Shown in pieces: positions 14,027-43,875 of a stretch of DNA of 64,000 nucleotides. Position numbers and translations under genes: made by a program. Below the pieces are notes generated by a model. The model was not told the origin of the DNA, ran no database searches, and saw nothing but the letters and a program-made list of their open reading frames with translations. This DNA is from a virus. The stretch is taken from the IMG/VR virus record IMGVR_UViG_3300028578_000003, positions 1 to 64,000 of that record. The stretch is one strand, 5' to 3'. Every line of letters starts with the position of its first letter. Position 1 is the first letter of the stretch.

Positions 14027-14069
14027 ACTGTAGTTGGGGTAACCCGATGCGTCAAGTTACCCCAACTAC
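14027..14069 (-). promoter_or_regulatory. sigma70-type promoter TTGACG-17-TACAGT with inverted pair of 14-bp operators
   Basis: -35 at 14050-14055, -10 at 14027-14032; GTAGTTGGGGTAAC at 14030-14043 and its complement at 14056-14069. Confidence 0.85.
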
Positions 14070-15367
14070 CGGGGGTTGGCCGCCAACGCGGCGTCGACCG
14101 CCGCCTCACAGTCGCGAAGGTCGAACAGTGCAGCAGACCGCACCGGCTTCGTCCACAAGATCCGGGCCCGGCCGAGCGCACACCGATACGAGTCCCCGAC
14201 GTCGCCGCACCTCCAACACATCACCACATCAGGGCCCTCGAAGTCCTCTTCCTCCGCACGCAGCGTCTTAACAGCGGCCAGCCCTAGCGCGCCGCGCGGG
14301 TCGTTGTCCCCGTCCGACCACGCCGGACCGCCGCAGCCGATGCATCTCCCGACGTACCGGATCACCCGCTGGCCCGCGAACCCGCTGTACATCTGCACCG
14401 GGTACGCGATCGCGTCCGCCGCGGTGAGCCTCGGCTCCGCCACCGCAACCGGCTCGCCGACCGCCGGTCGGTAAACGCTCGCCGCGTGCCGCCGAGGAGC
14501 GGACCGTGTACCACCGACCTGCTTGGTCGCGGCGATCACGCAGGTGCCGACGTCGGTGCCGGACTGCCGGAACGACCGGGCCGGCAACTCCTGCACCACC
14601 AGGTCCGGACCGAGCAGCTCGCGCAGCCGGACGGACTTGCGGTCCCGGCGGCCAGCGAAGCCGCCGGGCACGATCGCGACCAGGCGGCCGGCGAGCATCT
14701 CCCAGGCTAGGCGCACGTGGTCGATCCAGATCGTGGGGTTGCCCGGCACCGAGTACGGCGGGTTCATCACCACCAGGTCGTACAACTCTGCTCCCGGCTC
14801 CCGGCCACCGGCGAACCGCTCGAAGGTGCACACGTGCAGCGGGTAAACGCCGCCGATCTTCCCGACCTCGAAGGCGCGCTCGTCGACCGGCTCGACAGCT
14901 GTCACCCGCGCGCCCGGCACGGCGGCCAGCACGGCGCGGATCAGCGCACCCTCGCCAGCCGAGGGCTCGAGCACCCGGGGTTGGGCGGGCAGAGATCCCA
15001 GGTCGGCGAACCGCTGGACCACCGAGGTGGCCAGCGAGTCCGGCGTCGGCACCCAACCGACCGTCGTCCGCTCATGCTGAGGTGCCGGGCCGCCAGCGAT
15101 GAACGAGGCCAGGTCGGCGCGCCGGTCAACGTTGAACCGGTACGGCTGGCCCATCCGGCTACCGCCGGTCGCGCCCATCTGCTTAAGCATGGCGTGCAGC
15201 GACTGCCAGACCTGCCGCGCCAACGGCTCCCGCGGCAGCGCCAGCACCCGCTCGGCCAGCGACGACCGGGCCAGCACGACACGTACCTCATCCAGTCCAT
15301 CGCCGGCGGTGCCAGCGGCCGGCAGTTCGTCGATCAGCATCGACGTCACCTTTCTCTGGTTGGTCAT
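14066..15367 (-). CDS. N6-adenine DNA methyltransferase (gamma-type motif order)
   Basis: RVLEPSAGEG SAM-binding motif followed by DLVVMNPPY. Confidence 0.85.
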   Translation of the reverse strand: MTNQRKVTSMLIDELPAAGTAGDGLDEVRVVLARSSLAERVLALPREPLARQVWQSLHAMLKQMGATGGSRMGQPYRFNVDRRADLASFIAGGPAPQHERTTVGWVPTPDSLATSVVQRFADLGSLPAQPRVLEPSAGEGALIRAVLAAVPGARVTAVEPVDERAFEVGKIGGVYPLHVCTFERFAGGREPGAELYDLVVMNPPYSVPGNPTIWIDHVRLAWEMLAGRLVAIVPGGFAGRRDRKSVRLRELLGPDLVVQELPARSFRQSGTDVGTCVIAATKQVGGTRSAPRRHAASVYRPAVGEPVAVAEPRLTAADAIAYPVQMYSGFAGQRVIRYVGRCIGCGGPAWSDGDNDPRGALGLAAVKTLRAEEEDFEGPDVVMCWRCGDVGDSYRCALGRARILWTKPVRSAALFDLRDCEAAVDAALAANPR

Positions 15368-21764: not shown

Positions 21765-23849
21765 TCAGACCAGTTCGAACTTGGGGATCTCAACCCCGGT
21801 GACGCCCTCCATCAGGCAGGCGACCAGGTCACGGGCAGAGCAGCGGGTGACGGCGTTGCCGAGCATCCGAACCTTGTCCCGCTTGGCTTTGCCGAGCAGC
21901 ACGTAGCCGCTGGAGAAGTCCATGCCGGCCTGGATCTCGGCGACGGCGAGCATCCGCAGTGTGCAGTCGTCGACGTCGACGGCGGTGCCGACCAGTGCGT
22001 CACCGTCCACAGTGGTCTGTGCCGGGATCGGCTCGTCCAGTGGCCGCATGATGCCTGTGTCGTAGGCGTAGAGCACGTGGTCCCAGCGGATCAGCGACTG
22101 CCCGCCTTCGGTGGTGAAGGTGCGCAGCGGCTCGTTGGGGCGGTAGCTCATTTGGCCCTGGTCACCGCGGGCGGTGTTGTTGCGCATCACCATCGCCGCG
22201 TCGGCCGGCAGGCCGATCAGCGACTGGTGCCCGGCGGTGGTCAGGGTCCGGATCGGCTCCCCGGCGGGCGTGCACATCTCCGCGCCGCCGTGGTTGTTGC
22301 GCATTACGAGGGCGTGGTGCTCGCCGCCGGCGGCGACCGTCTTGAACGGGTGGGTGGGTGGGGTGGCGACGCCGTTGTTGCGCAGTGGCACCACGAGGGC
22401 GTCCTGGTGGCGGGTGGTCTGCGCCCGCATCGGGTCGTTAGCGGGGCGGGCGAAGACACCGTCGCGGCCTTCCAGCGGCACGACCAGCGCGGTGTTCTCC
22501 CGGGTGGTGCAGGTCCGCATCGGCCCTTCGACCGTCGACGCGTCGTCGTTCCAGGTGCCGCCGGTCGGCACGAGCATCTCCGGGCCGACCGCGATGCTCT
22601 TGCTCAGCGTCGTGTGTTGGGTGCCCAGCGGCCGGTCGACCGGCCAGGACCTCACGCCGGGCCGCCGCTCGAAGGTGTGCCCTGAGGTCTCGACCACGAC
22701 CGGCTGGCAGTAGCGCTCCAGGCCGGCGGCGATGCGGGCGCGGGTCTTCGCGGCGAGTGGCCGCTTGCGGTCGCCGATCCGCTCGGCGGGCAGGGACCAG
22801 TCGATCGCGGAGGCGGCCGGCAGGACCAGCGGGTGGACCATCTGGCCGGCGCACGCCTTGGCGGGGCAGCGGTATGTGTACTGGGCCCGTGGGCCGTACC
22901 GCATCGGCCGCAACTTGCCCGGCTTGGGGTTGTAGATGCCGTCCACGACGTCGCCGCAGGAGGGGCAGGACGACTTGGGCCGCAGCCACTTGTTCCAGTC
23001 CGGGGTCTTGTAGATCGCCTTCCAGAAGATGATGTAGACGCGGTCCCGCAGTTGCGGCGCCGGCATACCGGTGGCCTGGGCGAACGCCGAATTCAGGGTA
23101 ATGATCTTCCAGCGGTAGCCCTCTGCCTCCATCTCGCGGAGCATGCGGGGCAGGGCGGCCCACTTGAGGATGTCGGGGACGTTCTCGACGATGATGCCCT
23201 TGTACTGGTGGTGACGGGCGAACCGGACCACGTCGGTCATCAGCATCCGGGACCGCCAGCGCGCTTCTCGCGCCTCGGGCGTCTCCGGGTCGCCTTCCAT
23301 CACGTCCAGCGCGAGCTGCTCGCTCTGCAGGTCGTAGTCGCAGGCCTCACCCCTGGCCACAGACCAGTACGTGCACTCCGGTGAGAACCAGGCGAAGTCC
23401 GTGCGCGGGTACCGCTTCGGGTCGGTGCGGGCGACGTTGGCGACGTCGTGGTCGGTGTCGGGGTGGTTGAAGTTGTGCGTCTCGATCGCGAGGGGCCAGT
23501 GATTCACGGCCATCCGCACGCCGGCGCCGGGCACTTCTCCGATCCCCGACGATGACCCGCCGGCGCCGGCGAAGAAGTCCGACCAGGTCGCCTCGACACC
23601 GTCCGGTGCCGAGCGGGTCGGCAGCACCCGCGGCAGCGAGCGGCGCAGCTCGGTGAGCGTGTCACCGCAGTCCCACACCTGGATCGGTTTGGTCGGGTGA
23701 TACGGCGTCGTCACCGTGAACAGGTGCGGCGCCTTCCGGGTCATCCCCTGGTGCAGCGCTTCCATGTCGACCGGTCCGGGCGGCGCCGTGTCGGTGGCGA
23801 GGGCTGCGTCGACGGCCTTGCCCATGGCGTTCATGTCGAGCACGGTCAC
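21765..23849 (-). CDS. C5-cytosine DNA methyltransferase
   Basis: DFFAGAGG (motif I), SPEC (IV), ENV (VI), QLRDR (VIII), LGNAV (X). Confidence 0.95.
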   Translation of the reverse strand: MTVLDMNAMGKAVDAALATDTAPPGPVDMEALHQGMTRKAPHLFTVTTPYHPTKPIQVWDCGDTLTELRRSLPRVLPTRSAPDGVEATWSDFFAGAGGSSSGIGEVPGAGVRMAVNHWPLAIETHNFNHPDTDHDVANVARTDPKRYPRTDFAWFSPECTYWSVARGEACDYDLQSEQLALDVMEGDPETPEAREARWRSRMLMTDVVRFARHHQYKGIIVENVPDILKWAALPRMLREMEAEGYRWKIITLNSAFAQATGMPAPQLRDRVYIIFWKAIYKTPDWNKWLRPKSSCPSCGDVVDGIYNPKPGKLRPMRYGPRAQYTYRCPAKACAGQMVHPLVLPAASAIDWSLPAERIGDRKRPLAAKTRARIAAGLERYCQPVVVETSGHTFERRPGVRSWPVDRPLGTQHTTLSKSIAVGPEMLVPTGGTWNDDASTVEGPMRTCTTRENTALVVPLEGRDGVFARPANDPMRAQTTRHQDALVVPLRNNGVATPPTHPFKTVAAGGEHHALVMRNNHGGAEMCTPAGEPIRTLTTAGHQSLIGLPADAAMVMRNNTARGDQGQMSYRPNEPLRTFTTEGGQSLIRWDHVLYAYDTGIMRPLDEPIPAQTTVDGDALVGTAVDVDDCTLRMLAVAEIQAGMDFSSGYVLLGKAKRDKVRMLGNAVTRCSARDLVACLMEGVTGVEIPKFELV

Positions 23850-30832: not shown

Positions 30833-33800
30833 TTAGGGGGTGGCGCCGAACCCGCTGCCCATCATGGCGGCGATGCCGGCGGCGACCTCCTCTTCCAGGT
30901 TGCCCATGACCATGCCGGCGAAGTCCCCGAACTCGCCGAGGTCGATCTCGACCGCGTCGGCTTCGACGACCACGTCACCGGCGTCCTTGTTCGGTCCGGA
31001 CTTACCCGATGCGGCCTCGTTCAGCGCCGCCTCGATCTGGTCCAGCCGGGCCCGCGCCGCGGTGATCTCAGCGGCGTGCTCGAACGGCTTCTCGGCGAGC
31101 GCGTCACACTGGGTCGCCTCGGCCAGCAGCTTCGCCTCGGCGTCCCGCTGCAACGCGGCCGCGTCGGCGGCGTTCTCCAGGACCTTGCGGATCCTGTTCT
31201 TCACCTGCACCGGCTTCCAGAACCGGTAGCACAGCTCGGTCATCTGCCCGCCGCCACCGTCGATCGTCATCAGCGGCTGCGGTTCCGGTTCCTCCGCCTG
31301 CGTCTGCCACTGCCGCCAGCCGACCATCACGCCGCCGCCGATGTCGACCGGCGACACGTAGTACTTGAACCGGGCCATCGACTCGTGCAGCCGAGTGACC
31401 ATGTCGTCGTCCACCTCAACGCCCGCGCCGGCCTTGGCGATCGCCTCCCACGCGCCCGCCTCGGCGGCGTGCTTGCGGGCCTGTTGCCGCATCCGGGGCG
31501 CGTCCTTACGCATGCGGGCCACCGTCTGCCGGTGTGCACGCTCCCGCAACCGCAGCTTCTTGACCGTGGTCTCAACCTCGGCCTTCTCCTGTAGCAGCGG
31601 CTGGTCGGTGGCGGCGGCCTTGATGGCGGCGAAGCTGAGCACGTCGTCGCCGGTCACGTCCTCCACCGTGCGGTCGAGGTTCCCGCTGAGCATCTGCGAG
31701 ATGAAGGTCAGCTTCCGCGTCAGCATCTGCCACATGTAGGCGTCGAATGTCCGCTTTGTCACATACCGGAAGATCGTCACCAGCTTGTTGATGTTTCCGG
31801 GGCGCAGGCCCCGCCCGTCGCGCTGCTCCACATCCGCCGGCCGGAACGGCGCGTCGATGTGATGCATCGCGACGACCAGCCGCTGAATGTTCGTGCCCAC
31901 GCCGAGCTTGTCGGTGGAGCCGAAGATGACGTCGACCTTGCCCCGCTTGCAGTCACGGAACAGTTGCGCCTTGGCGTTGTCGTCCTTGGCGTCGTGGATG
32001 AACCGGATCCGGGATACGTCCATCCCGGCCTCGGTCAGCAACCTGCGCAGCCGGCCGTACGTCTGGTAGTCGACGACCGTGGCGCCCTTGCGTTTGGTCG
32101 GGGTGCCGATGTCCAGGAACGCGATCTGCAGCTTGCCCGGGTGCTGCTGCCACGTGGAGATGATGTTCTCGGCGACGACGTGGAGCTTGTGGTAGCCGTC
32201 GTCGTCCAACCCGACCAGCGTCGGGTCGGTGGCCATCCTGCGCCCGTCGGAGCAGATCTTCAGCATGTTGTCGCAGCCCGGCCCGGGGAACCGGCCCTGC
32301 GAGCGGACATCCTCGGCCCGGTCGACCAGGTCGGAGGAGTACCACTGCTGCGTGTCGGTGGGCTCCACCGGCACGATTCGCAGCTCGGAGGCCGGCCGCT
32401 TGAGACCCAGCTGCTCGGCGGTGCGGATGTCCGCCACCTGTGAGAGCAGCACCCGCAGCTCCGGCGCGTTGACGAACTCCGCCGGCCGGGTCCGCATCTG
32501 GAAGTCGCCGCCGTCGACCGTCACCTCAGCCGAGGAGACGAACCGCACGTAGGCGGCCGCCCACTCATCGGCCGACCCGATCCCGATCTGCTTGAGGTAC
32601 GGCCGCATCGTGTAGTGCATGCACACGTACAGCTCCAGCATCGTGTTGGAGATCGGTGTGCCGGAGAACAGCGACGCGTGCGGGCCGCCGGAGTTGCGGG
32701 CCCGCAGGTACCGCAGCTTCATGTCCAGGTCGGTCGCCCGCTTCGACGGCCGGACACTGAAACCCTCAGTCCGGCAAGGGATCGACAGGTTCTTGTAGTA
32801 GTGGAACTCGTCGACGCACACGTAGTCGACGCCGAGTTGCTCGAACCGGATGCCCACGTCCCGGCCCTTGGCGGTGTGCCGCAACTCCTTGATGTTGGCC
32901 CGCAGCCGGTCGAGCAGCTTCGCCGCGTTCTTGACCATGCGGCCCTTGAGCGACCCGCCGGCACCCTCGACCAGGCCCTCGTACAGGTCCTGCTCCTGGT
33001 CGGAGACGTACCGGGCCTGCGTCTCAGGGTCGACGTCCATCAGGTTGAACGCCGAGTGCGTGACCAGCACGATGTCCCAGTCACCGGTCGTGCAGCGGGC
33101 GGTGAACGACCGCCGCTTGCGGGCGGACCCCCGCTTGTCCTTGCCTTTGAACGTGGACGATGACGCCGACAGGATCCTCGCGGCCGGGAACAGCTGCCGG
33201 ATCTCCCGGTCGATCTGCTCGATCAGGTGGTTGGGCACCACGATCATCGGCTTACGGACCAGGCCAGCCTGCTTGAGCTTGATGGCGACCATCGCCATGA
33301 TGTTCGTCTTGCCGGCCCCGACCGGTAGCCCGCACAGCGCCGCCGAGGTCACCAGCGCCCGCGCCACGTACTCCGGCTGGTGGGCGTACGGCTTGAACCC
33401 CGGCGCGATCCCGTCGATGGTGATGTGCTCGCCGGAGAACTTGCGTGGTGCCAGGTTGTTGTACCGGTGGTTGTAGAGCGTCACCAGCCGGTCGGTCCGC
33501 TCCGGGCACTCCCACACCCACTCGCTGAACCGGGCCCGCAGCTCCTGCTGCTTCTCGGCGGCGAGCATCGACGCCTCTTGATCCTTGACCGACTTCGGTT
33601 CGCCGTCGTCGTCGTACACCGTCTTGTACACGGCCGGGGTCTTGCCGTTGAGGGCCAGCTGGACCAGCTTGAACGCGTCGACTTTCGCGGTACCCCACTC
33701 CGCCGACGCGGCCACACTGTTACGCAGCGCGCCCTGCGCCTCGATCTCCCAGTTGTTGCCGGACGACACCCGCTTGACGGTGGCGGAGTAGCCGATCACC

Positions 33801-35797
33801 TCGGCGATGAACGTCTTGACGTCGGTTGGCCCGATCCACGGCGTGCCGAGGTTCGCGACGATCTCACCCGGCCCCAGCCAGCGGGGCAGCACCTTCTCCA
33901 GCGCGGCCGTGTTGCGGGCGAACTGGGCGTCGTGCTTGGTCGCCGTCTGCGCGGCCAGCAGCTTGCCGCGCACGTCACCCGAGCAGTACTCCTCGGCGAT
34001 CACCCAACGGCGGGTGGTCGGGTCGAGGAACACCGTCTCGCCGAGCAGCCCGGCTACCTCGGCGAGCGCCGAGTCCCGCTCGTCGCCGAGCGGGCCGGGG
34101 ATCGGCCGACGCAGCAGCCGGGCGATGTACGCCAGATCCACCTTGCCGGCGTTGCGGTCCAGACACCATGCGAGCGCCTGTTGCGGGTCGTCGGTGGTGG
34201 TGTGCCGCACCGGCGGCACGTTCTGCCGCGCCGTTTGGATCGGTGCCGGTGCCGCCCGTACACCCGCGTCGGCCTCGTCGGCGTCGCCGTCATCGTCGGC
34301 GAACACCTCCAGCGCGTACACCAGCGGCGCGTCGGGGTCCTCACGGAACCCCTGCACGGTCGGGTAGACCCGCGACCACAACTGCTCACCGGTCTCCGGA
34401 TCGACGCCCGCGGCCCGCTGCGTGTACCTGTTCAACGGACCGTGGTGCTTGACGTAGTCCTCGTAGGCGGCCCGCACGTCGGCGCGGATCGGCTCGGTCA
34501 CCGAGTCGGTGTTGCTGTGGTCGGCCTCCGCCTTGACCAGATCGACGGCCAGGTCCCGCAGCCGCAGCAGCCGCAGCAGTTCCGGTCCCGGCCGGGGCAG
34601 CGGCTGCGCCTTGCCCTCGGTGACGACCAGCACCCCACCGTCGCCGGTGAGCCGCATCGTGCCCTCGTGCCAGCCCTCCTTGGACACGACCCCGGCCGCC
34701 TCCACGTCGAACACCGTCGGGTCCGGCGGCGCGGTCCACATCAGGTTCCGCTCCCGCGCCGCCGGCACCAACTCCCGCCGCACGAAGGTGCGCAACTGCT
34801 CGACCACGTCCTTGCCGTTCGGCTCGACCAGCAACCCGAGCCCGTACCGGTTCGTGGATCCGCGCTTCATGGTGCCGAGCACCGCGCCCGGCTCCTCGGT
34901 CCACCACTCGTTGATCGGCACATCAGCGCCGTACGTCGCGACGTCCGACTTCTGCCAGCCGTGCCCGTACGAGCGCCGCTTGGTGCCGCCCTTGCGGCGC
35001 AGGATCACGATGTCCGCCGCCACGTCGGTGCCACCCTCAAGCGCCCCGTTGGGCAGCCGCACCGCGCCGACGAAGTCCGCGTCCTCACCGATCGCCGCGC
35101 GCGGCTGCCAGTCGTAGGCGTCCATCGTGTACCGGCTGGTCAGCAGCACCGCGTACCCGCCGGGGGTGAGCGCCTGCGTCGCCCGCCAGATGAAGTAGTT
35201 GTGCAGGCTGTCGACCACGTGTCCCGGTGCGGTCGGGTCGAACAGCTTCACGTCACCGAACGGCACATTGCCGACCACGGCGGCGAAGTCCGACCCCACG
35301 CTCACCTCCTCCAGCGGCGCGTTGATGACCCGCGCGTGGGGGTTGAGCAGCTTGCAGATCGCGGCCGCCGTCGGGTCACGGTCGACACCAACCAGCGGCA
35401 CCCCGTCCGGCGCGGTGGCCAGGAACACCCCGGCGCCGCACCCGAGCTCCGCCACCGGCCCGCCGTCGAACCCGAACATTCCGAGCACGTCCCACATCGC
35501 CGCCGCGATGGGGCGGGGCGTGTAGAACGCGTTGTACGTGCCCCGCATACCGAGCTGCACGTCCTGCTCGGGCAGCGCGGCCTTGATCCGCTCGGCCATG
35601 TCCGCCCACGCCTGCTCCTCCGGAGCGAACGCCTTGGCCAGCGGCCCCCAGCCGGAGAACCCGGCCAGGATCACCCGCTCCGCGTCGGTGGCCACCGTGC
35701 GTGCCTGCTCACGGATCCGGGCCAGCGCCTCGATCGCGGCGACCGAGGCGCGTGCTCTGCCGATCGCGCCGACTCCCTTTCCTGCCTGTTCGGTCAT
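30833..35797 (-). CDS. DarB-like DNA methyltransferase-SNF2 helicase fusion
   Basis: AFYTP, ELGCGAG and GNVPF (MTase); VGAGKT, VDEFHYYKN, SGTPISN, GVGTNIQ and QRDGRGLRPGN (SF2 helicase). Confidence 0.92.
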   Translation of the reverse strand: MTEQAGKGVGAIGRARASVAAIEALARIREQARTVATDAERVILAGFSGWGPLAKAFAPEEQAWADMAERIKAALPEQDVQLGMRGTYNAFYTPRPIAAAMWDVLGMFGFDGGPVAELGCGAGVFLATAPDGVPLVGVDRDPTAAAICKLLNPHARVINAPLEEVSVGSDFAAVVGNVPFGDVKLFDPTAPGHVVDSLHNYFIWRATQALTPGGYAVLLTSRYTMDAYDWQPRAAIGEDADFVGAVRLPNGALEGGTDVAADIVILRRKGGTKRRSYGHGWQKSDVATYGADVPINEWWTEEPGAVLGTMKRGSTNRYGLGLLVEPNGKDVVEQLRTFVRRELVPAARERNLMWTAPPDPTVFDVEAAGVVSKEGWHEGTMRLTGDGGVLVVTEGKAQPLPRPGPELLRLLRLRDLAVDLVKAEADHSNTDSVTEPIRADVRAAYEDYVKHHGPLNRYTQRAAGVDPETGEQLWSRVYPTVQGFREDPDAPLVYALEVFADDDGDADEADAGVRAAPAPIQTARQNVPPVRHTTTDDPQQALAWCLDRNAGKVDLAYIARLLRRPIPGPLGDERDSALAEVAGLLGETVFLDPTTRRWVIAEEYCSGDVRGKLLAAQTATKHDAQFARNTAALEKVLPRWLGPGEIVANLGTPWIGPTDVKTFIAEVIGYSATVKRVSSGNNWEIEAQGALRNSVAASAEWGTAKVDAFKLVQLALNGKTPAVYKTVYDDDGEPKSVKDQEASMLAAEKQQELRARFSEWVWECPERTDRLVTLYNHRYNNLAPRKFSGEHITIDGIAPGFKPYAHQPEYVARALVTSAALCGLPVGAGKTNIMAMVAIKLKQAGLVRKPMIVVPNHLIEQIDREIRQLFPAARILSASSSTFKGKDKRGSARKRRSFTARCTTGDWDIVLVTHSAFNLMDVDPETQARYVSDQEQDLYEGLVEGAGGSLKGRMVKNAAKLLDRLRANIKELRHTAKGRDVGIRFEQLGVDYVCVDEFHYYKNLSIPCRTEGFSVRPSKRATDLDMKLRYLRARNSGGPHASLFSGTPISNTMLELYVCMHYTMRPYLKQIGIGSADEWAAAYVRFVSSAEVTVDGGDFQMRTRPAEFVNAPELRVLLSQVADIRTAEQLGLKRPASELRIVPVEPTDTQQWYSSDLVDRAEDVRSQGRFPGPGCDNMLKICSDGRRMATDPTLVGLDDDGYHKLHVVAENIISTWQQHPGKLQIAFLDIGTPTKRKGATVVDYQTYGRLRRLLTEAGMDVSRIRFIHDAKDDNAKAQLFRDCKRGKVDVIFGSTDKLGVGTNIQRLVVAMHHIDAPFRPADVEQRDGRGLRPGNINKLVTIFRYVTKRTFDAYMWQMLTRKLTFISQMLSGNLDRTVEDVTGDDVLSFAAIKAAATDQPLLQEKAEVETTVKKLRLRERAHRQTVARMRKDAPRMRQQARKHAAEAGAWEAIAKAGAGVEVDDDMVTRLHESMARFKYYVSPVDIGGGVMVGWRQWQTQAEEPEPQPLMTIDGGGGQMTELCYRFWKPVQVKNRIRKVLENAADAAALQRDAEAKLLAEATQCDALAEKPFEHAAEITAARARLDQIEAALNEAASGKSGPNKDAGDVVVEADAVEIDLGEFGDFAGMVMGNLEEEVAAGIAAMMGSGFGATP

Positions 35798-35892
35798 GTC
35801 GCTTCCCTTCATTCGTCCGACACGACACGGCGGGCCGCCCGGACGCCCCGTGACGCCCGGACCTCCCACCGACCCGCACCGGGCCGAGACTT

Positions 35893-39768: not shown

Positions 39769-41202
39769 TCAGGCCGACTTGTGCATCCGGTTGCCCACAC
39801 CCGGCACGCTCCGGACCGCCGCCACGAGAGCCGAAGTCAGCAGGTCGCCATCGACGTCAGCGCCGCCCCACTCCACCACGGTCATGACCAACTGGTGGTT
39901 GACCTTGTCGCGACGCACCTCGATCTTGACACCGAACTTGTTGGTCACCGCCCGCAGGACCGCCTGACGCACCTTCGTGGCAACCTCGTTCCGCGACTTG
40001 CCCGACAGGCCAGCCTGAAGCCTGAACTGCCACCCATCCGTCGCGGACCGCTCCGCCTGGTCCTGCTCCACCACCGGCTGCGCCGCCTTGCGCGCCTTGC
40101 GGCCCGGCTTCTCGGCAGGCTCCGGCTCCACGTCCTGGACCGCCACGCCCAGCTTGCCCCGGCACAGCGCGCCGCCGAACGGCCGCTCGTGCATGTCCAG
40201 CCGACCGTCAATCACCGGCTGCTCCGTACGGCACGAGGGGCACTTCGCCATCTCCGGCGCCGGAGCGGCCGTAGCCGGCAACGCCAGCAGGCCCGACAGG
40301 TCCAGCTTCGCTGGGGCAGGCTCCGCCGCAGGCGCCACGGGCACACCGGCGCAGGTGTTGCACTTGACCATCGGCATACCAGCCGCGTCCCGACCGATAC
40401 GCCCGGTCTCCCGGTCCAGACCCACGGCGCCGCACCCGCCGCACGTCTCACGACCCACACCCAAACCCCAATACAGGGCGTTGTGCGCCGCGTCGAACGC
40501 CCGCTGCCACTCGCGGAGCTGCTGCGCCGTGCGCTTCACGGGCAGCGGCTCACCGTTGACCTCCGTGACGATGTCGGTCTCCACCCGGTACAGCGGCACC
40601 CCATCGACCTGCTCCGCCGCCAGACGGGTGAGCAGCGCGTTGATCCGGTCCATGTCCGGCGCGAACCCACCGGTCCGGGGCAGGTAGAACGCATCCTGCT
40701 TCGCCCGCCACCAGAACCAACCCTCGCCGCCCTTTTTCGCCGTTCCGACGATCAGGTGAGCCCGAGAGTGCTGCTCCACCCCGTGGATCACGGTCGGGTG
40801 CTCGCCATCGTGGACCAGCCGCAGCGTGACGGTCTCCACCTTCGGGGTCTCCACCTTCGGAGCCGGCACGGCCTTCTTCGCCACCGCCTTCTTCGGAGCA
40901 GCCTCCACCTTCGGCGCCGCCGGCGCGGGCGTCTCCTCGACAGGCTCCGCCGCCTCCTTCGCCGCGATCTCGTTCGACAGCCACTGCGCCACCTCGGCGA
41001 ACGTCGGTGTCGGCTGGCCCGCCGCACCCGGGAACCGGAAGTCCGGGTACTTCTGCGCGCCCCGCTTCGCCTTAGCGAGCGCGTTCTTCAGCTTGCCCTC
41101 GTTATTGTCCGTGAGGACCTGCTTCGCCAGCACCAAGCGAGGGTCATCCGTTTTCGTAGCCGTAGCCGCCACTTTTCTCACCTTCCGTGGTCGATCGGTC
41201 AT
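39769..41202 (-). CDS. First early gene, multidomain protein with Ala/Lys/Pro linker and CxxC motifs
   Basis: Long ORF with good codon bias; start uncertain (41170-41253). Confidence 0.7.
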   Translation of the reverse strand: MTDRPRKVRKVAATATKTDDPRLVLAKQVLTDNNEGKLKNALAKAKRGAQKYPDFRFPGAAGQPTPTFAEVAQWLSNEIAAKEAAEPVEETPAPAAPKVEAAPKKAVAKKAVPAPKVETPKVETVTLRLVHDGEHPTVIHGVEQHSRAHLIVGTAKKGGEGWFWWRAKQDAFYLPRTGGFAPDMDRINALLTRLAAEQVDGVPLYRVETDIVTEVNGEPLPVKRTAQQLREWQRAFDAAHNALYWGLGVGRETCGGCGAVGLDRETGRIGRDAAGMPMVKCNTCAGVPVAPAAEPAPAKLDLSGLLALPATAAPAPEMAKCPSCRTEQPVIDGRLDMHERPFGGALCRGKLGVAVQDVEPEPAEKPGRKARKAAQPVVEQDQAERSATDGWQFRLQAGLSGKSRNEVATKVRQAVLRAVTNKFGVKIEVRRDKVNHQLVMTVVEWGGADVDGDLLTSALVAAVRSVPGVGNRMHKSA

Positions 41203-41265
41203 TAGCAGACCGCACCGTGCGCACTCCACTGCGCGCCCGGTCTGGAGAGCCAATGCGCCTTAGGT

Positions 41266-42640
41266 GCGCCGGCCGGTCGGTTACCCAACCGGCCGGCGCC
41301 CAAGAGATAGATGTCCCGTCACACTCGGAACACAGGTTCGCGTGTGTCCGGGGCGCTACACCCGGCTCACTACGCCACGCTAGGCAGGGACATACCTGAG
41401 AACACACCTCCGGCCCGGCGTCACTCGGGACGGTCGCCCTTACAGGCGTAGGTTCTGTGGCGATCATCGACCGACCCGCTCCCGCGAGTCCGCCTCGACA
41501 CGGGTGCCTTTGCACCCCCCGCTCCTAGGACGTGGTAAGCCCATCATCGGTAGTCGGTGGCTCCGGTCCGTGACCCTTACCGGCATCAGATGCCGGACCC
41601 TCGCACGGGACCATCCGAGCGCACTGTGCACGCTCCCGCCATGCCCCCCACCAGGCCCCGATACGGGCGGGTAGGGAACCGCTCTGGTGTTCAGAGCCCT
41701 AGCGCGCTAGGCGAGACGCACCCGCCTAGCAACATTTCCCCTGGCAATGTGTCAATGAGAGATACCACTCTTCCGCTCGCCTCACGGCGATCCGACAACC
41801 CTGCCTCACGGCGGGTACCTAAGCCACGCTAGTGGTCGCCCGAAGGCATGAAGGCGCGCGGTATCGGTCTCGCATAAGCGCCACCCTCCGCTGATCAGAT
41901 CAGCGGCTAGCTTGCATCCCGTGGTCTCTCGCGCCTAAAGCATGGTTGGCGTCGGCGCAGGCCATTCAATGGGGAATCACACTATTCACGTTTCAAGGAA
42001 CACCGGCCGGACACAGTCCGGGCAAGACTGCGCATACGCCCTTGCGTCGCGCTTTACGTCTCACGCACCGTCCCCGCAGAAAGCGCAGCCATCCCCTTGA
42101 CATCACACGGATGCCCGGATCGGAGGCACACTCGCCCGATTGGGTCTAGTGCCGGAGCTAGCAGCTGGTGATGTCAGCGCACGGGGAACCGCTGGCAGTC
42201 AGACTGCCCGCTATCCCTGGTGTGCACCCCGTCACCCCTATGGCTAGCGCGCCCGGTCAGACCGGGTGAGCGCCGCGCCATGCGGTCGGTTTGCTAGCCG
42301 TATTCGATTCACAAGTAACGGGTGCCCGGTCAGACCGGGCCGTGCCAACCCCGGTCAGACCGGGGGCCTAGCGTGTGCACCCGGTCAGACCGGGCCGTGC
42401 CTTACGTAAACAGCAAGGGGAGGAAAGCATCGGTCCTAGGGGTCGCCAGAAGGCTTCCCGTTCTTCAGCAATTACAGCGTGCCCCGGGTGTTACCGGAGG
42501 ATCTGCCTACCACTGCTTGTGCCGATTGCCGCGTACCCACCATGCCGCCTTGCGTGCAAGCGGCCCGACTGATAGCGATTCACGGATGGCCCATTTCAGA
42601 AACGGGATACCGTCCGCTTACTCGCCTGCCGTTCGCTTGC
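41266..42640 (-). ncRNA. Putative long structured leader/ncRNA
   Basis: No credible ORF; eight UCUGA hairpins plus GUAA, GUGA and UUCG tetraloop hairpins on the minus strand; downstream of two leftward TTGACA promoters. Confidence 0.6.
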
Positions 42641-42647
42641 GAGTGCC

Positions 42648-42690
42648 ACTCTGCCGGTCCATTGGCCACTTGTCAAGTTACCCCAACTAC
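42648..42690 (-). promoter_or_regulatory. Leftward promoter TTGACA-17-CAGAGT with operator abutting the -35
   Basis: tgtcaa at 42671-42676; operator at 42677-42690. Confidence 0.65.
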
Positions 42691-42749
42691 TGCCATTGCT
42701 AAGGGGATCGCTTGGCTTCCTGGCTTGCCCTGCTCGGTGGAACGCAAGT

Positions 42750-42793
42750 AGCTTGCGCTCCGCCCAACCCCCTTGTCAAGTTACCCCGACTAC
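42750..42793 (-). promoter_or_regulatory. Leftward promoter (TTGACA, weak -10) with a 1-mismatch operator
   Basis: tgtcaa at 42774-42779; GTTACCCCGACTAC at 42780-42793. Confidence 0.55.
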
Positions 42794-42794
42794 A

Positions 42795-42810
42795 TGTGAC
42801 CCAGGTCACA
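42795..42810. promoter_or_regulatory. Crp/GlxR-type binding site
   Basis: Perfect TGTGA-N6-TCACA (TGTGACCCAGGTCACA). Confidence 0.6.
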
Positions 42811-43134
42811 ATCGCCCCCTTTTAATTGCTAAGAGGAATCGCGCGCAATGCGCACGCGCGGTTCCTTACTAAGCAAAGGGGGATCGATTCCTCTCGATGG
42901 ATCCAAGATCAACCCCCGGGGGTACCCCTCCCCCGTACCCCGGCGCGCGCGCCATCGGCGGGTTCGGGGCCTCGCGGTACGTACAGGTCCAAAACTCCTG
43001 AGCCTCCAAAGTTTCCGGGATGCGCGCGTCTGCGGCGTGTCTGCTGACCTGCGGATATAGGATCGCGACCGTGACCGCCGGGGTCGGGCGGCGGGAGGCC
43101 GCGCAGCCAAGATCACCCCCGGCCGCTGCCATGG

Positions 43135-43875
43135 ATGCTCCCCGTCACCACCTCTTCCCCGTACGCTCCCGGCATGCTCGATCCCCGCATACGCCAGCTC
43201 ACTTCCAAGGCAGACGCAGTCGCCGCCGCGCGTACGGTGACGACTCCGGACGAGATCGGACGGTTCGAGGAAATAGCGAGACAAACAGAGGCTGGTCGCG
43301 AATACCTAGCGTCGGGCGAATGGCTTTCCTATCGCGCGGTAATTGCCAGTCGTGGGGCCACCCCGACCAGCCGACCTAAGACACTCGCGGAGCTGGCTCG
43401 ATATCTGCAATACCGCGCCGACCAGGTCCCCGAAACCAGCGACCCGGCGGCGGCTCACCGCGACGCCTACCGGCTAGCCGCCTTCGAGGTCTCCGCGCTG
43501 GACATACAGCTCGCGAGCACGGTCACCTGGCCGGTCATGCACAGCGGCATGCGGTTCCCCGAGGCGCTACGCGCGGCCATGAGCGGTGCCCACATCGCCC
43601 GGGCTGGCTGGCCGGCGGGCTCGTACGTGTTGGTGCGGACCGGGTATCCGGCCGGGATCCCGATCAACGAGAACACCGCGGCGGCGACCGGGCTGCCTGT
43701 GGGGACGCCTGGGGTGTTCTTGCCGTACCTCGAGCGCTGCGACGCGAACGAGGCCGCCGCTGTCGCGCTCGGCGTGGCGGGAGAGTACGTGTTCCAGCCG
43801 TGGACGCCGGGCCAGGAGGACGTCTTCGGCGGCGACTGGCGGGCGATCAGTGGGAGGGCGGGGCTGCTGACCTAG
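43135..43875 (+). CDS. DUF2829 (Tad2-like) domain protein with N-terminal extension
   Basis: MRFPEALRAAMSGAHIARAGW...FLPYL...PWTPGQEDVFGGDW; start uncertain. Confidence 0.8.
   Translation: MLPVTTSSPYAPGMLDPRIRQLTSKADAVAAARTVTTPDEIGRFEEIARQTEAGREYLASGEWLSYRAVIASRGATPTSRPKTLAELARYLQYRADQVPETSDPAAAHRDAYRLAAFEVSALDIQLASTVTWPVMHSGMRFPEALRAAMSGAHIARAGWPAGSYVLVRTGYPAGIPINENTAAATGLPVGTPGVFLPYLERCDANEAAAVALGVAGEYVFQPWTPGQEDVFGGDWRAISGRAGLLT

Follow-up and report, generated by a model that had tools for sequence, protein, structure and literature searches.

The minus strand at positions 41173–42640 of the window (64 kb from the start of an IMG/VR virus record that is 163,217 bp long and rated as complete) carries a predicted structured leader RNA of ca. 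1.47 kb, which is well supported by comparison with related sequences. It is predicted to start at ca. 42640 and to extend as far as the start codon of the gene that heads a leftward operon. A large structured minus-strand leader with many copies of one loop had been proposed from the window alone in the original prediction, and this interpretation agreed with the promoter, the covariation, the G-U bias, the orientation of the hairpins, and the lack of an ORF. On balance, this stretch is probably the folded leader of the early operon, and its CUG hairpins would form a multivalent protein-binding platform.

Genome context and promoter region

The G+C content of the window is ca. 70%. Genes encoding the portal, terminase, protease, and major head proteins are located to the right of the leader region. 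Since the portal protein shares only ca. 33% identity with the portals of Gordonia and Mycobacterium phages, the record represents an uncultured and distant phage, or phage-like element, of actinobacteria. The left arm (ca. 12.6–41.2 kb) is leftward throughout; its products include DNA methyltransferases and a helicase-like protein of 1,678 aa, and the first rightward gene encodes a Tad2-like domain. The Tad2-like domain and orphan methyltransferases are anti-defense-type neighbors of the leader.

No coding signal was found at positions 41,173–43,400 (2.2 kb), which are flanked by the leftward gene of a 467-aa protein and the rightward Tad2-like gene. In a codon-position GC plot, both flanking genes, the leftward one ending near 41,170 and the rightward one extending from ca. 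43,400, exhibited a strong third-position bias, and the plot was flat from ca. 41,150 to 43,400. These results indicate a non-coding divergent intergenic region of ca. 2.2 kb. On the basis of the flat plot, a hidden ORF in the leader was rejected, consistent with the earlier claim that the region has no credible ORF.

Two leftward TTGACA boxes, which had likewise been predicted, were located at 42676–42671 and 42779–42774. The proximal box belongs to a putative minus-strand promoter (42648–42676; −35 TTGACA at 42676–42671, 17-nt spacer, and −10 CAGAGT at 42653–42648), and its TTGACA was kept at the aligned position in six of the seven sequences, L072 being gapped there. The −10 of the relatives is TAGTGT, TAATGT, or TAATAT, giving TTGACA/TAnnnT boxes 17–18 nt apart. 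Because nothing in the region, the proximal promoter included, passed a strict E. coli-type promoter scan, this promoter is proposed from its conservation. A second, upstream copy of the promoter/operator unit AGTYGGGGTAACTTGACA is present as a direct repeat on the minus strand (42774–42791), and in the relatives this unit takes the form of the palindrome AAGTC-N5-GACTT, which overlaps the −35. Additionally, a perfect 16-bp palindrome, TGTGACCCAGGTCACA (42795–42810), was kept in five of the seven aligned sequences (the window, L071, L073, L072, and L077) and is likely a dsDNA operator. These operator-type palindromes (TGTGACCCAGGTCACA and the AAGTC-N5-GACTT units at the −35 boxes) are located upstream of the predicted transcription start.

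The first gene of the leftward operon (39769–41172, minus strand; GTG start at 41172, RBS GGAAGGUGAG) encodes the 467-aa protein, which was found with the leader in every case. This protein showed no sequence match in Pfam, PHROG, or PDB. It has eight invariant Cys residues with four CxxC-type pairs, and its AlphaFold2 model (mean pLDDT 74) contains TPR-like N-terminal helices and a ferredoxin-like C-terminal domain. Foldseek and VIA-align searches with the whole model (Z ≤ 8.3) and the middle domain (Z ≤ 5.1) gave only generic TPR-like or ferredoxin-like likeness; therefore, no function can be derived for the protein. No RNA-binding domain was recognized in sequence and structure searches.

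CUG-triloop hairpins in the window

All eight predicted hairpins with a TCAGA apex (UCUGA on the minus strand) were confirmed at their predicted coordinates, and the five stem types described among them were correct. From the 5′ end of the leader, hairpin 1 (42590–42606; CCCGUU-UCUGA-AAUGGG) contains a single mismatch, which is a G-U pair on the minus strand only, as had been pointed out, and it has perfect homologues in L072 and L073. Hairpin 2 (42380–42394) reads CCCGGU CUG ACCGGG, and hairpins 3 (42349–42365) and 4 (42324–42340) were identified by a palindrome scan. The stem of hairpin 5 (42252–42266) covaries among CCCGG, CCCG, CCUG, and CCAGG, and that of hairpin 6 (42194–42208; GGCAGU CUG ACUGCC) covaries to AGCGG, GACGG, and CCCGG. 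Hairpin 7 (41888–41906) is composed of CCGCUGAU CUG AUCAGCGG, and hairpin 8 (41580–41596; CCGGCAU CUG AUGCCGG) has the stems CCCGUAU, CCUGAU, and CCGGCAU in relatives. All eight are on the minus strand.

In the whole 163-kb genome, which contains TCAGA only 32 times, a scan for perfect odd palindromes (arms ≥ 6) gave 151 sites. Of these, seven are TCAGA-centered, and all seven are within 41,588–42,387, a span of 800 bp (centers at 41588, 41897, 42201, 42259, 42332, 42357, and 42387); the imperfect eighth is centered at 42598. No TCTGA-centered perfect odd palindrome was found in the genome.

Conservation of the hairpins in relatives

Twelve homologues of the 467-aa protein (37–77% identity) were found in soil metagenome assemblies, and the leaders of relatives were obtained by fetching their contigs. 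In 10 metagenomic relatives, ca. 1.2–1.5 kb without a credible gene precedes the 467-aa gene, and such a stretch was present in every contig that was long enough upstream. CTG-centered palindromes with at least 4 of 5 flanking pairs were present on the gene strand in eight of the nine relatives with enough upstream DNA, with 5–9 copies in seven relatives and two in L074. All eight share a 5′ hairpin cluster with similar spacing ca. 880–1,340 nt upstream of the gene, and the positions of the hairpins nearer the gene (3′) vary more among relatives.

Taken together, 11 leaders contained 64 perfect odd palindromes, of which 58 were CTG-centered, always on the gene strand (53 TCTGA and 5 CCTGG); the remaining six include the promoter-associated AAGTC-N5-GACTT elements. 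When stems of at least 4 pairs were allowed, 65 hairpins with 20 different 5-bp stem tops were obtained, all in the same orientation. Their second pair was R:Y in 97%, and their fourth pair was C:G in 86%.

The loop-closing U-A becomes C-G in the most distant relatives, L079, L074, and L076. This joint change indicates that the U and A of UCUGA (loop positions 1 and 5) form a Watson–Crick pair and that the invariant apex is a CUG triloop. The UCUGA loop had originally been described as invariant; the apex is indeed constant, but since its U and A pair, the constant part is the CUG triloop. A T-loop motif, in which U1 and A5 form a reverse-Hoogsteen pair usually within a 7-nt loop, was rejected, as C-G replaces U-A at positions 1 and 5 of L074, L076, and L079, and no extra loop nucleotides are present.

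The palindromes might also be regarded as dsDNA operators or iterons recognized by a dimeric DNA-binding protein, given that they are perfect, have a partly conserved half-site (C-N-R-T-C), and share a divergent control region with clear operator-type palindromes. At such sites, the orientation of the central base is irrelevant, and a symmetric dimer would not require the central T to be on the same strand, as it is in 65 of 65 sites with 20 stem tops. Furthermore, complementarity runs over 6–9 bp with free sequence beyond the half-site, so that the outer arms vary yet remain complementary, tolerance for G-U pairs is confined to one strand, and the sites are spread over 1.3 kb within a covarying RNA-type fold. 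Action as dsDNA sites or iterons, which the original prediction had set against an RNA, is thus disfavored by the asymmetric central base and by arms complementary past the half-site, and we consider it extremely improbable.

The number of hairpin copies per leader ranged from 2–3 in L074 and L079, the two most distant relatives, to about 10, and was commonly 5–10. L079 keeps the conserved sequence blocks and has three CCUGG hairpins and no UCUGA hairpins, and L074 has two UCUGA hairpins and one CCUGG hairpin. Therefore, the array is not strictly required in its common form. Among homologous hairpins, a GNRA or other loop in one relative is replaced by UCUGA in another. Motif copies thus come and go on hairpins that already exist, which would be expected if copy number matters. 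The loop swaps and the range of copy numbers suggest that selection favors a single ligand-binding loop present in many copies, and it is this pattern that leads us to favor a multivalent protein-binding platform.

Neither megablast nor blastn searches with the leader matched GenBank phages or PLSDB plasmids, and tblastn searches with the 467-aa protein gave no match in phages or plasmids. Searches of IMG/VR and GTDB species genomes with protein patterns or conserved RNA blocks detected no relatives, L114 and the other matches being due to chance. The exact palindrome CCCGGTCAGACCGGG occurs as single copies in 64 unrelated viral contigs, and a search with it was therefore uninformative. Relatives found via the terminase had too little upstream DNA. 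A literature search for UCUGA or CUG-triloop hairpins in phages yielded nothing relevant.

Evidence for a structured RNA and its strand

The 1.47-kb leader could be aligned in 7–10 relatives or related sequences, with a mean column identity of 52%. The consensus fold contains more than 40 helices, many of which show compensatory changes, and its three or four domains are closed by long-range helices, among them 42170/41978, 41976/41736, and 41705/41377. Changes on both sides of a pair were seen for 22 of the 73 pairs predicted from one sub-alignment and for 31 of the 85 predicted from another. For the 3′ 400 nt, 32 pairs had changed on both sides, compared with 13.7 ± 2.4 in column shuffles (0 of 500) and 3–12 in slid-partner controls, although the shuffle statistics overstate independence because the alignment holds only 7–10 related sequences. 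Conserved structure in relatives, which the original prediction had named as a check, was thus found in the form of compensatory changes in the consensus fold.

An Infernal/Rfam search had been suggested as well. A cmscan of 40500–43500 on both strands against Rfam 15, which includes GOLLD, ROOL, OLE, group I/II introns, STAXI, and riboswitches, matched no family; with a match criterion of E ≤ 1, the only match was a chance miRNA (E = 0.53; 21 bits vs. a gathering score of 66). The RNA family is undescribed and has no match to an Rfam family, isolate phage, plasmid, or genome.

Several measures indicated the minus strand as the folding strand. The alifold energy was −474 kcal/mol on the leader strand vs. 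−405 kcal/mol on the opposite strand, and the single-sequence minimum free energy (MFE) was lower on the leader strand in eight of ten sequences. The ratio of G-U to A-C was 315:67 on the leader strand vs. 161:139 on the opposite strand, and 108:51 among the pairs predicted on both strands. The GNRA caps (GUGA, GGGA, GAGA, GCGA, and GUAA) read as GNRA on the leader strand only. The MFE z-scores were moderate (−3.4 and −2.5 for two overlapping halves).

Single-stranded DNA of the same strand would give the same strand-specific signals, and the hairpins could act in single-stranded minus-sense DNA, either in the manner of the hairpin promoters of N4 or as priming or entry signals when DNA is replicated or transferred. 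The promoters of the giant virion RNA polymerase of N4 are strand-specific hairpins with 3-nt loops. The strand-specific hairpins of the leader, with 3-nt loops and 5–9-bp stems, resemble that geometry (5–7-bp stem, 3-nt loop, and central template purine); on the plus strand, they present a CAG triloop whose central base is a purine, A, on stems of 4–9 bp. In the N4 layout, however, each hairpin heads an early transcription unit, whereas here eight hairpins are located within 1.1 kb that is free of ORFs and form part of a far larger conserved fold that includes GNRA loops. Moreover, a conserved ordinary promoter reads into the hairpins. GC skew showed at most a weak, local minimum across the leader region; thus, no origin can be called there, and a clear origin signal is lacking. 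An RNA is the simpler reading given the ordinary promoter and the position as operon leader, and we consider action as ssDNA very unlikely.

GNRA hairpins and a terminator-like element

Apart from the CUG-triloop hairpins, the original prediction had listed other capped hairpins on the minus strand. The GUAA hairpin and the two GUGA hairpins proved to be real and supported by covariation. The former (41263–41301) is a 17-bp hairpin corresponding to helix 10, in which 6 pairs have changed on both sides; its loop is GUAA in the window, UCUGA in L072 and L078, UGUGA in L073, and UUUGA in L074. The two adjacent GUGA (GNRA) hairpins are located at 41772–41795 and 41798–41816, and the one at 41772–41795 has a UCUGA loop in place of GUGA in L077. 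Among the relatives, the cUUCGg hairpin of the window (ca. 41838–41847) is conserved in L071 only.

Ca. 140 nt before the gene, a minus-strand hairpin followed by the U-rich tail CUAUCUCUU (41311–41333) resembles a weak terminator or attenuator and is kept in most relatives. In L077, the tail is missing and the loop is UCUGA, and L074 has no hairpin. This element could serve as an attenuator.

These elements bear on whether the leader might instead be a self-contained large structural RNA of the GOLLD/ROOL/OLE kind, in which the CUG and GNRA loops make RNA–RNA contacts and which acts in trans, for example in scaffolding or assembly. Its large size, several domains, covarying long-range helices, and GNRA tetraloops are in line with such an RNA, as are the interchange of UCUGA and GNRA loops on homologous hairpins and the terminator-like hairpin ca. 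140 nt before the gene. However, a 3-nt loop is ill-suited to loop–loop pairing, and neither a receptor nor a conserved complementary motif was found. In addition, the terminator-like tail is absent in L077 and the hairpin in L074, no large-RNA model of Rfam matches, and the leader is always fused to the 5′ end of the same gene. We thus regard a structural RNA acting in trans as unlikely.

Comparison with known RNA systems

GOLLD, ROOL, and OLE share with the leader an unusually large, multi-domain, covariation-supported fold in a phage-carried non-coding RNA of unknown biochemical function. However, the leader matches their Rfam models neither in sequence nor in structure, is about twice the size of GOLLD or ROOL, and is located at the head of an operon. 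GOLLD, ROOL, and OLE are not known to carry an identical triloop motif in repeated copies.

Lambda-type nut sites and HK022 put likewise have a hairpin of ca. 15 nt with a constant loop in an untranslated leader behind an early promoter and ahead of a very long operon. However, boxB consists of a 5-bp stem and a GNRA-like pentaloop (GAAAA/GACAA type), whereas the hairpins here have a CUG triloop (UCUGA), and a nut site occurs once per operon, whereas 5–10 copies are found here in a 1.4-kb conserved fold. No boxA (CGCUCUUUA-like; [CT]GCTCTT[TA]?A), which in nut sites precedes boxB by a few nucleotides, was present in any of the 10 leaders scanned. In addition, no N-like (arginine-rich) antiterminator was identified at the first gene, the 467-aa product of which has no recognizable family. 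The missing boxA and the different loop, which is not a GNRA-like boxB pentaloop, rule out a lambda-type nut site.

CsrB/RsmZ sponge RNAs also carry many copies of one short loop on differing stems, in numbers that vary among relatives. Here, in contrast, the loop is CUG rather than GGA, the RNA would be a 5′ leader fused to the operon and is 3–4 times longer, and no Rfam family matches. The motif A.GGA occurred 2–7 times per leader and never coincided with the repeated CUG loop. To our knowledge, Actinobacteria lack CsrA. Since the repeated loop is CUG and not GGA, a Csr/Rsm-type RNA is ruled out. The CsrB-like sponge, antitermination platform, and anti-defense decoy suggested in the original prediction would be analogies. 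A short conserved loop on varying stems is also seen in the coat-protein operators and dispersed packaging signals of ssRNA phages, where one protein reads them with avidity. Those signals are located in an RNA genome and serve capsid assembly, whereas the hairpins here belong to a predicted dsDNA-phage transcript with no link to a coat protein.

Similarity to the anticodon loop of tRNA-Gln(CUG)

The only tRNA gene of the 163-kb genome encodes tRNA-Gln(CUG) (159,847–159,920; anticodon loop CUCUGGA), and tRNA-Gln(CUG) is the main glutamine tRNA of high-GC hosts. U-CUG-A equals U33, the anticodon CUG, and A37. The leader could accordingly be viewed as a trans-acting decoy or sponge whose CUG hairpins titrate a host factor, in the boldest form a nuclease that attacks the anticodon loop of tRNA-Gln(CUG). 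The genes in the neighborhood are of the anti-defense type (Tad2-like domain and orphan methyltransferases). The actinobacterial toxin VapC-mt11 cleaves tRNA-Gln(CUG) in vivo (PMC6459853), and phage tRNAs have been proposed to counter tRNA-directed nucleases (PMC10264068). However, VapC-mt11 needs GG (PMC6459853), which the hairpins lack. Furthermore, the loop of the phage tRNA is CUCUGGA and not UCUGA. An anticodon stem-loop has a 7-nt loop with U33, the anticodon, and a purine at 37, in which positions 32 and 38 form no Watson–Crick pair. U-CUG-A is present in the hairpins, but a 7-nt loop would form only if two pairs opened; the covariation of U-A to C-G and a next pair that is complementary (R:Y) in 97% point to a loop of 3 nt rather than 7 nt. 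We consider a decoy or sponge acting in trans quite unlikely. Its specific form, in which the leader is an anti-defense RNA whose 5–10 U-CUG-A hairpins titrate or mislead a host enzyme targeting the anticodon loop of tRNA-Gln(CUG) while the single, unusual tRNA-Gln(CUG) of the phage sustains translation, is very doubtful; if true, the leader would be an RNA decoy against tRNA-directed immunity.

A proposed role for the leader

For the favored protein-binding platform, we infer the following course from the RNA-type conservation, strand, motif, and multiplicity seen in these sequences. The minus strand of 41,173–42,640 would be transcribed from the conserved sigma-70-type promoter, and the product would be a 5′ leader, non-coding and highly structured, of the leftward (early/anti-defense) operon of 41 kb or, in an alternative form, a separate RNA of ca. 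1.3 kb ending shortly before the first gene of the operon, near 41,305. The RNA is predicted to fold into several domains closed by long-range helices, with GNRA and other conserved caps, and to display 5–10 short hairpins (4–9 bp beyond the loop) with a CUG triloop closed by U-A or rarely by C-G. A single RNA-binding factor that recognizes the loop together with the top of the stem may bind these hairpins, which would offer it multiple sites. The factor could be encoded by the phage, the obvious candidate being the co-occurring 467-aa zinc-ribbon protein, or by the host. Through the RNA–protein complex on the early transcript, the operon would then be regulated at the level of read-through, stability, or translation, or the factor might be kept from its other targets.

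If transcribed as predicted, the leader would be among the largest conserved structured non-coding RNAs in a bacterial virus, and we know of no such large RNA described in soil actinobacterial phages or phage-plasmids. With 65 instances, one orientation, and 20 stem tops, the CUG-triloop hairpin is a recognition element with clear limits, and retrieval of its partner by a simple RNA pull-down should therefore be feasible. The leader heads an operon rich in anti-defense-type genes, and its partner and mode of action may point to a new means of controlling or protecting early gene expression in phages.

Variation of the leader among relatives

The leader of the closest relative, L071, was about 91% identical to that of the window over most of its length. 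The window's leader carries an insertion of approximately 130 nt (about 42400–42530), which separates hairpin 1 (42590–42606, minus strand) from the hairpin cluster; this insertion was missing in L071. In a distant relative, L079 (1–1394), the leader retained several of the conserved blocks of sequence and had no UCUGA hairpins; its hairpin tips were instead C-CUG-G and C-AUG-G.

ARAGORN detected a single tRNA gene in the 163-kb genome, tRNA-Gln(CUG), located outside the window (159847–159920 of the genome). Its anticodon loop is CUCUGGA, and the CUG triplet is common to its anticodon and the apexes of the leader hairpins.

Genes flanking the leader

Among the products of the leftward arm (minus strand) are at least two DNA methyltransferase-like proteins, together with a helicase-like protein of 1,678 aa (14066–15367, 21765–23849, and 30833–35869). 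In L071, the helicase occupies the same place in the gene order. The divergent gene (43135–43875, plus strand) encodes a product with a Tad2-like (anti-Thoeris) domain at residues 139–236. Since the coding signal of this gene starts only near 43,400, the gene itself probably begins further downstream than 43135.

Putative operators around the leftward promoters

A perfect 16-bp palindrome, TGTGACCCAGGTCACA (42795–42810), has the two leftward −35 boxes on one side and the divergent gene on the other. Of the seven aligned sequences, five retain this palindrome (the window, L071, L073, L072, and L077), which resembles a repressor operator. An inverted repeat, AGGAATCGCGCGC...GCGCGCGGTTCCT (42834–42866), was conserved across all aligned relatives and was also flagged in a scan as terminator-like on the minus strand.

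At the −35 boxes themselves, the unit AGTYGGGGTAACTTGACA occurs at 42671–42688 and 42774–42791 and was also found in L077, L079, and L081, with two or three copies per leader region. In the relatives, this unit forms a palindrome, AAGTC-N5-GACTT, which overlaps the −35 box, suggesting that AGTYGGGGTAACTTGACA is probably a second type of operator.
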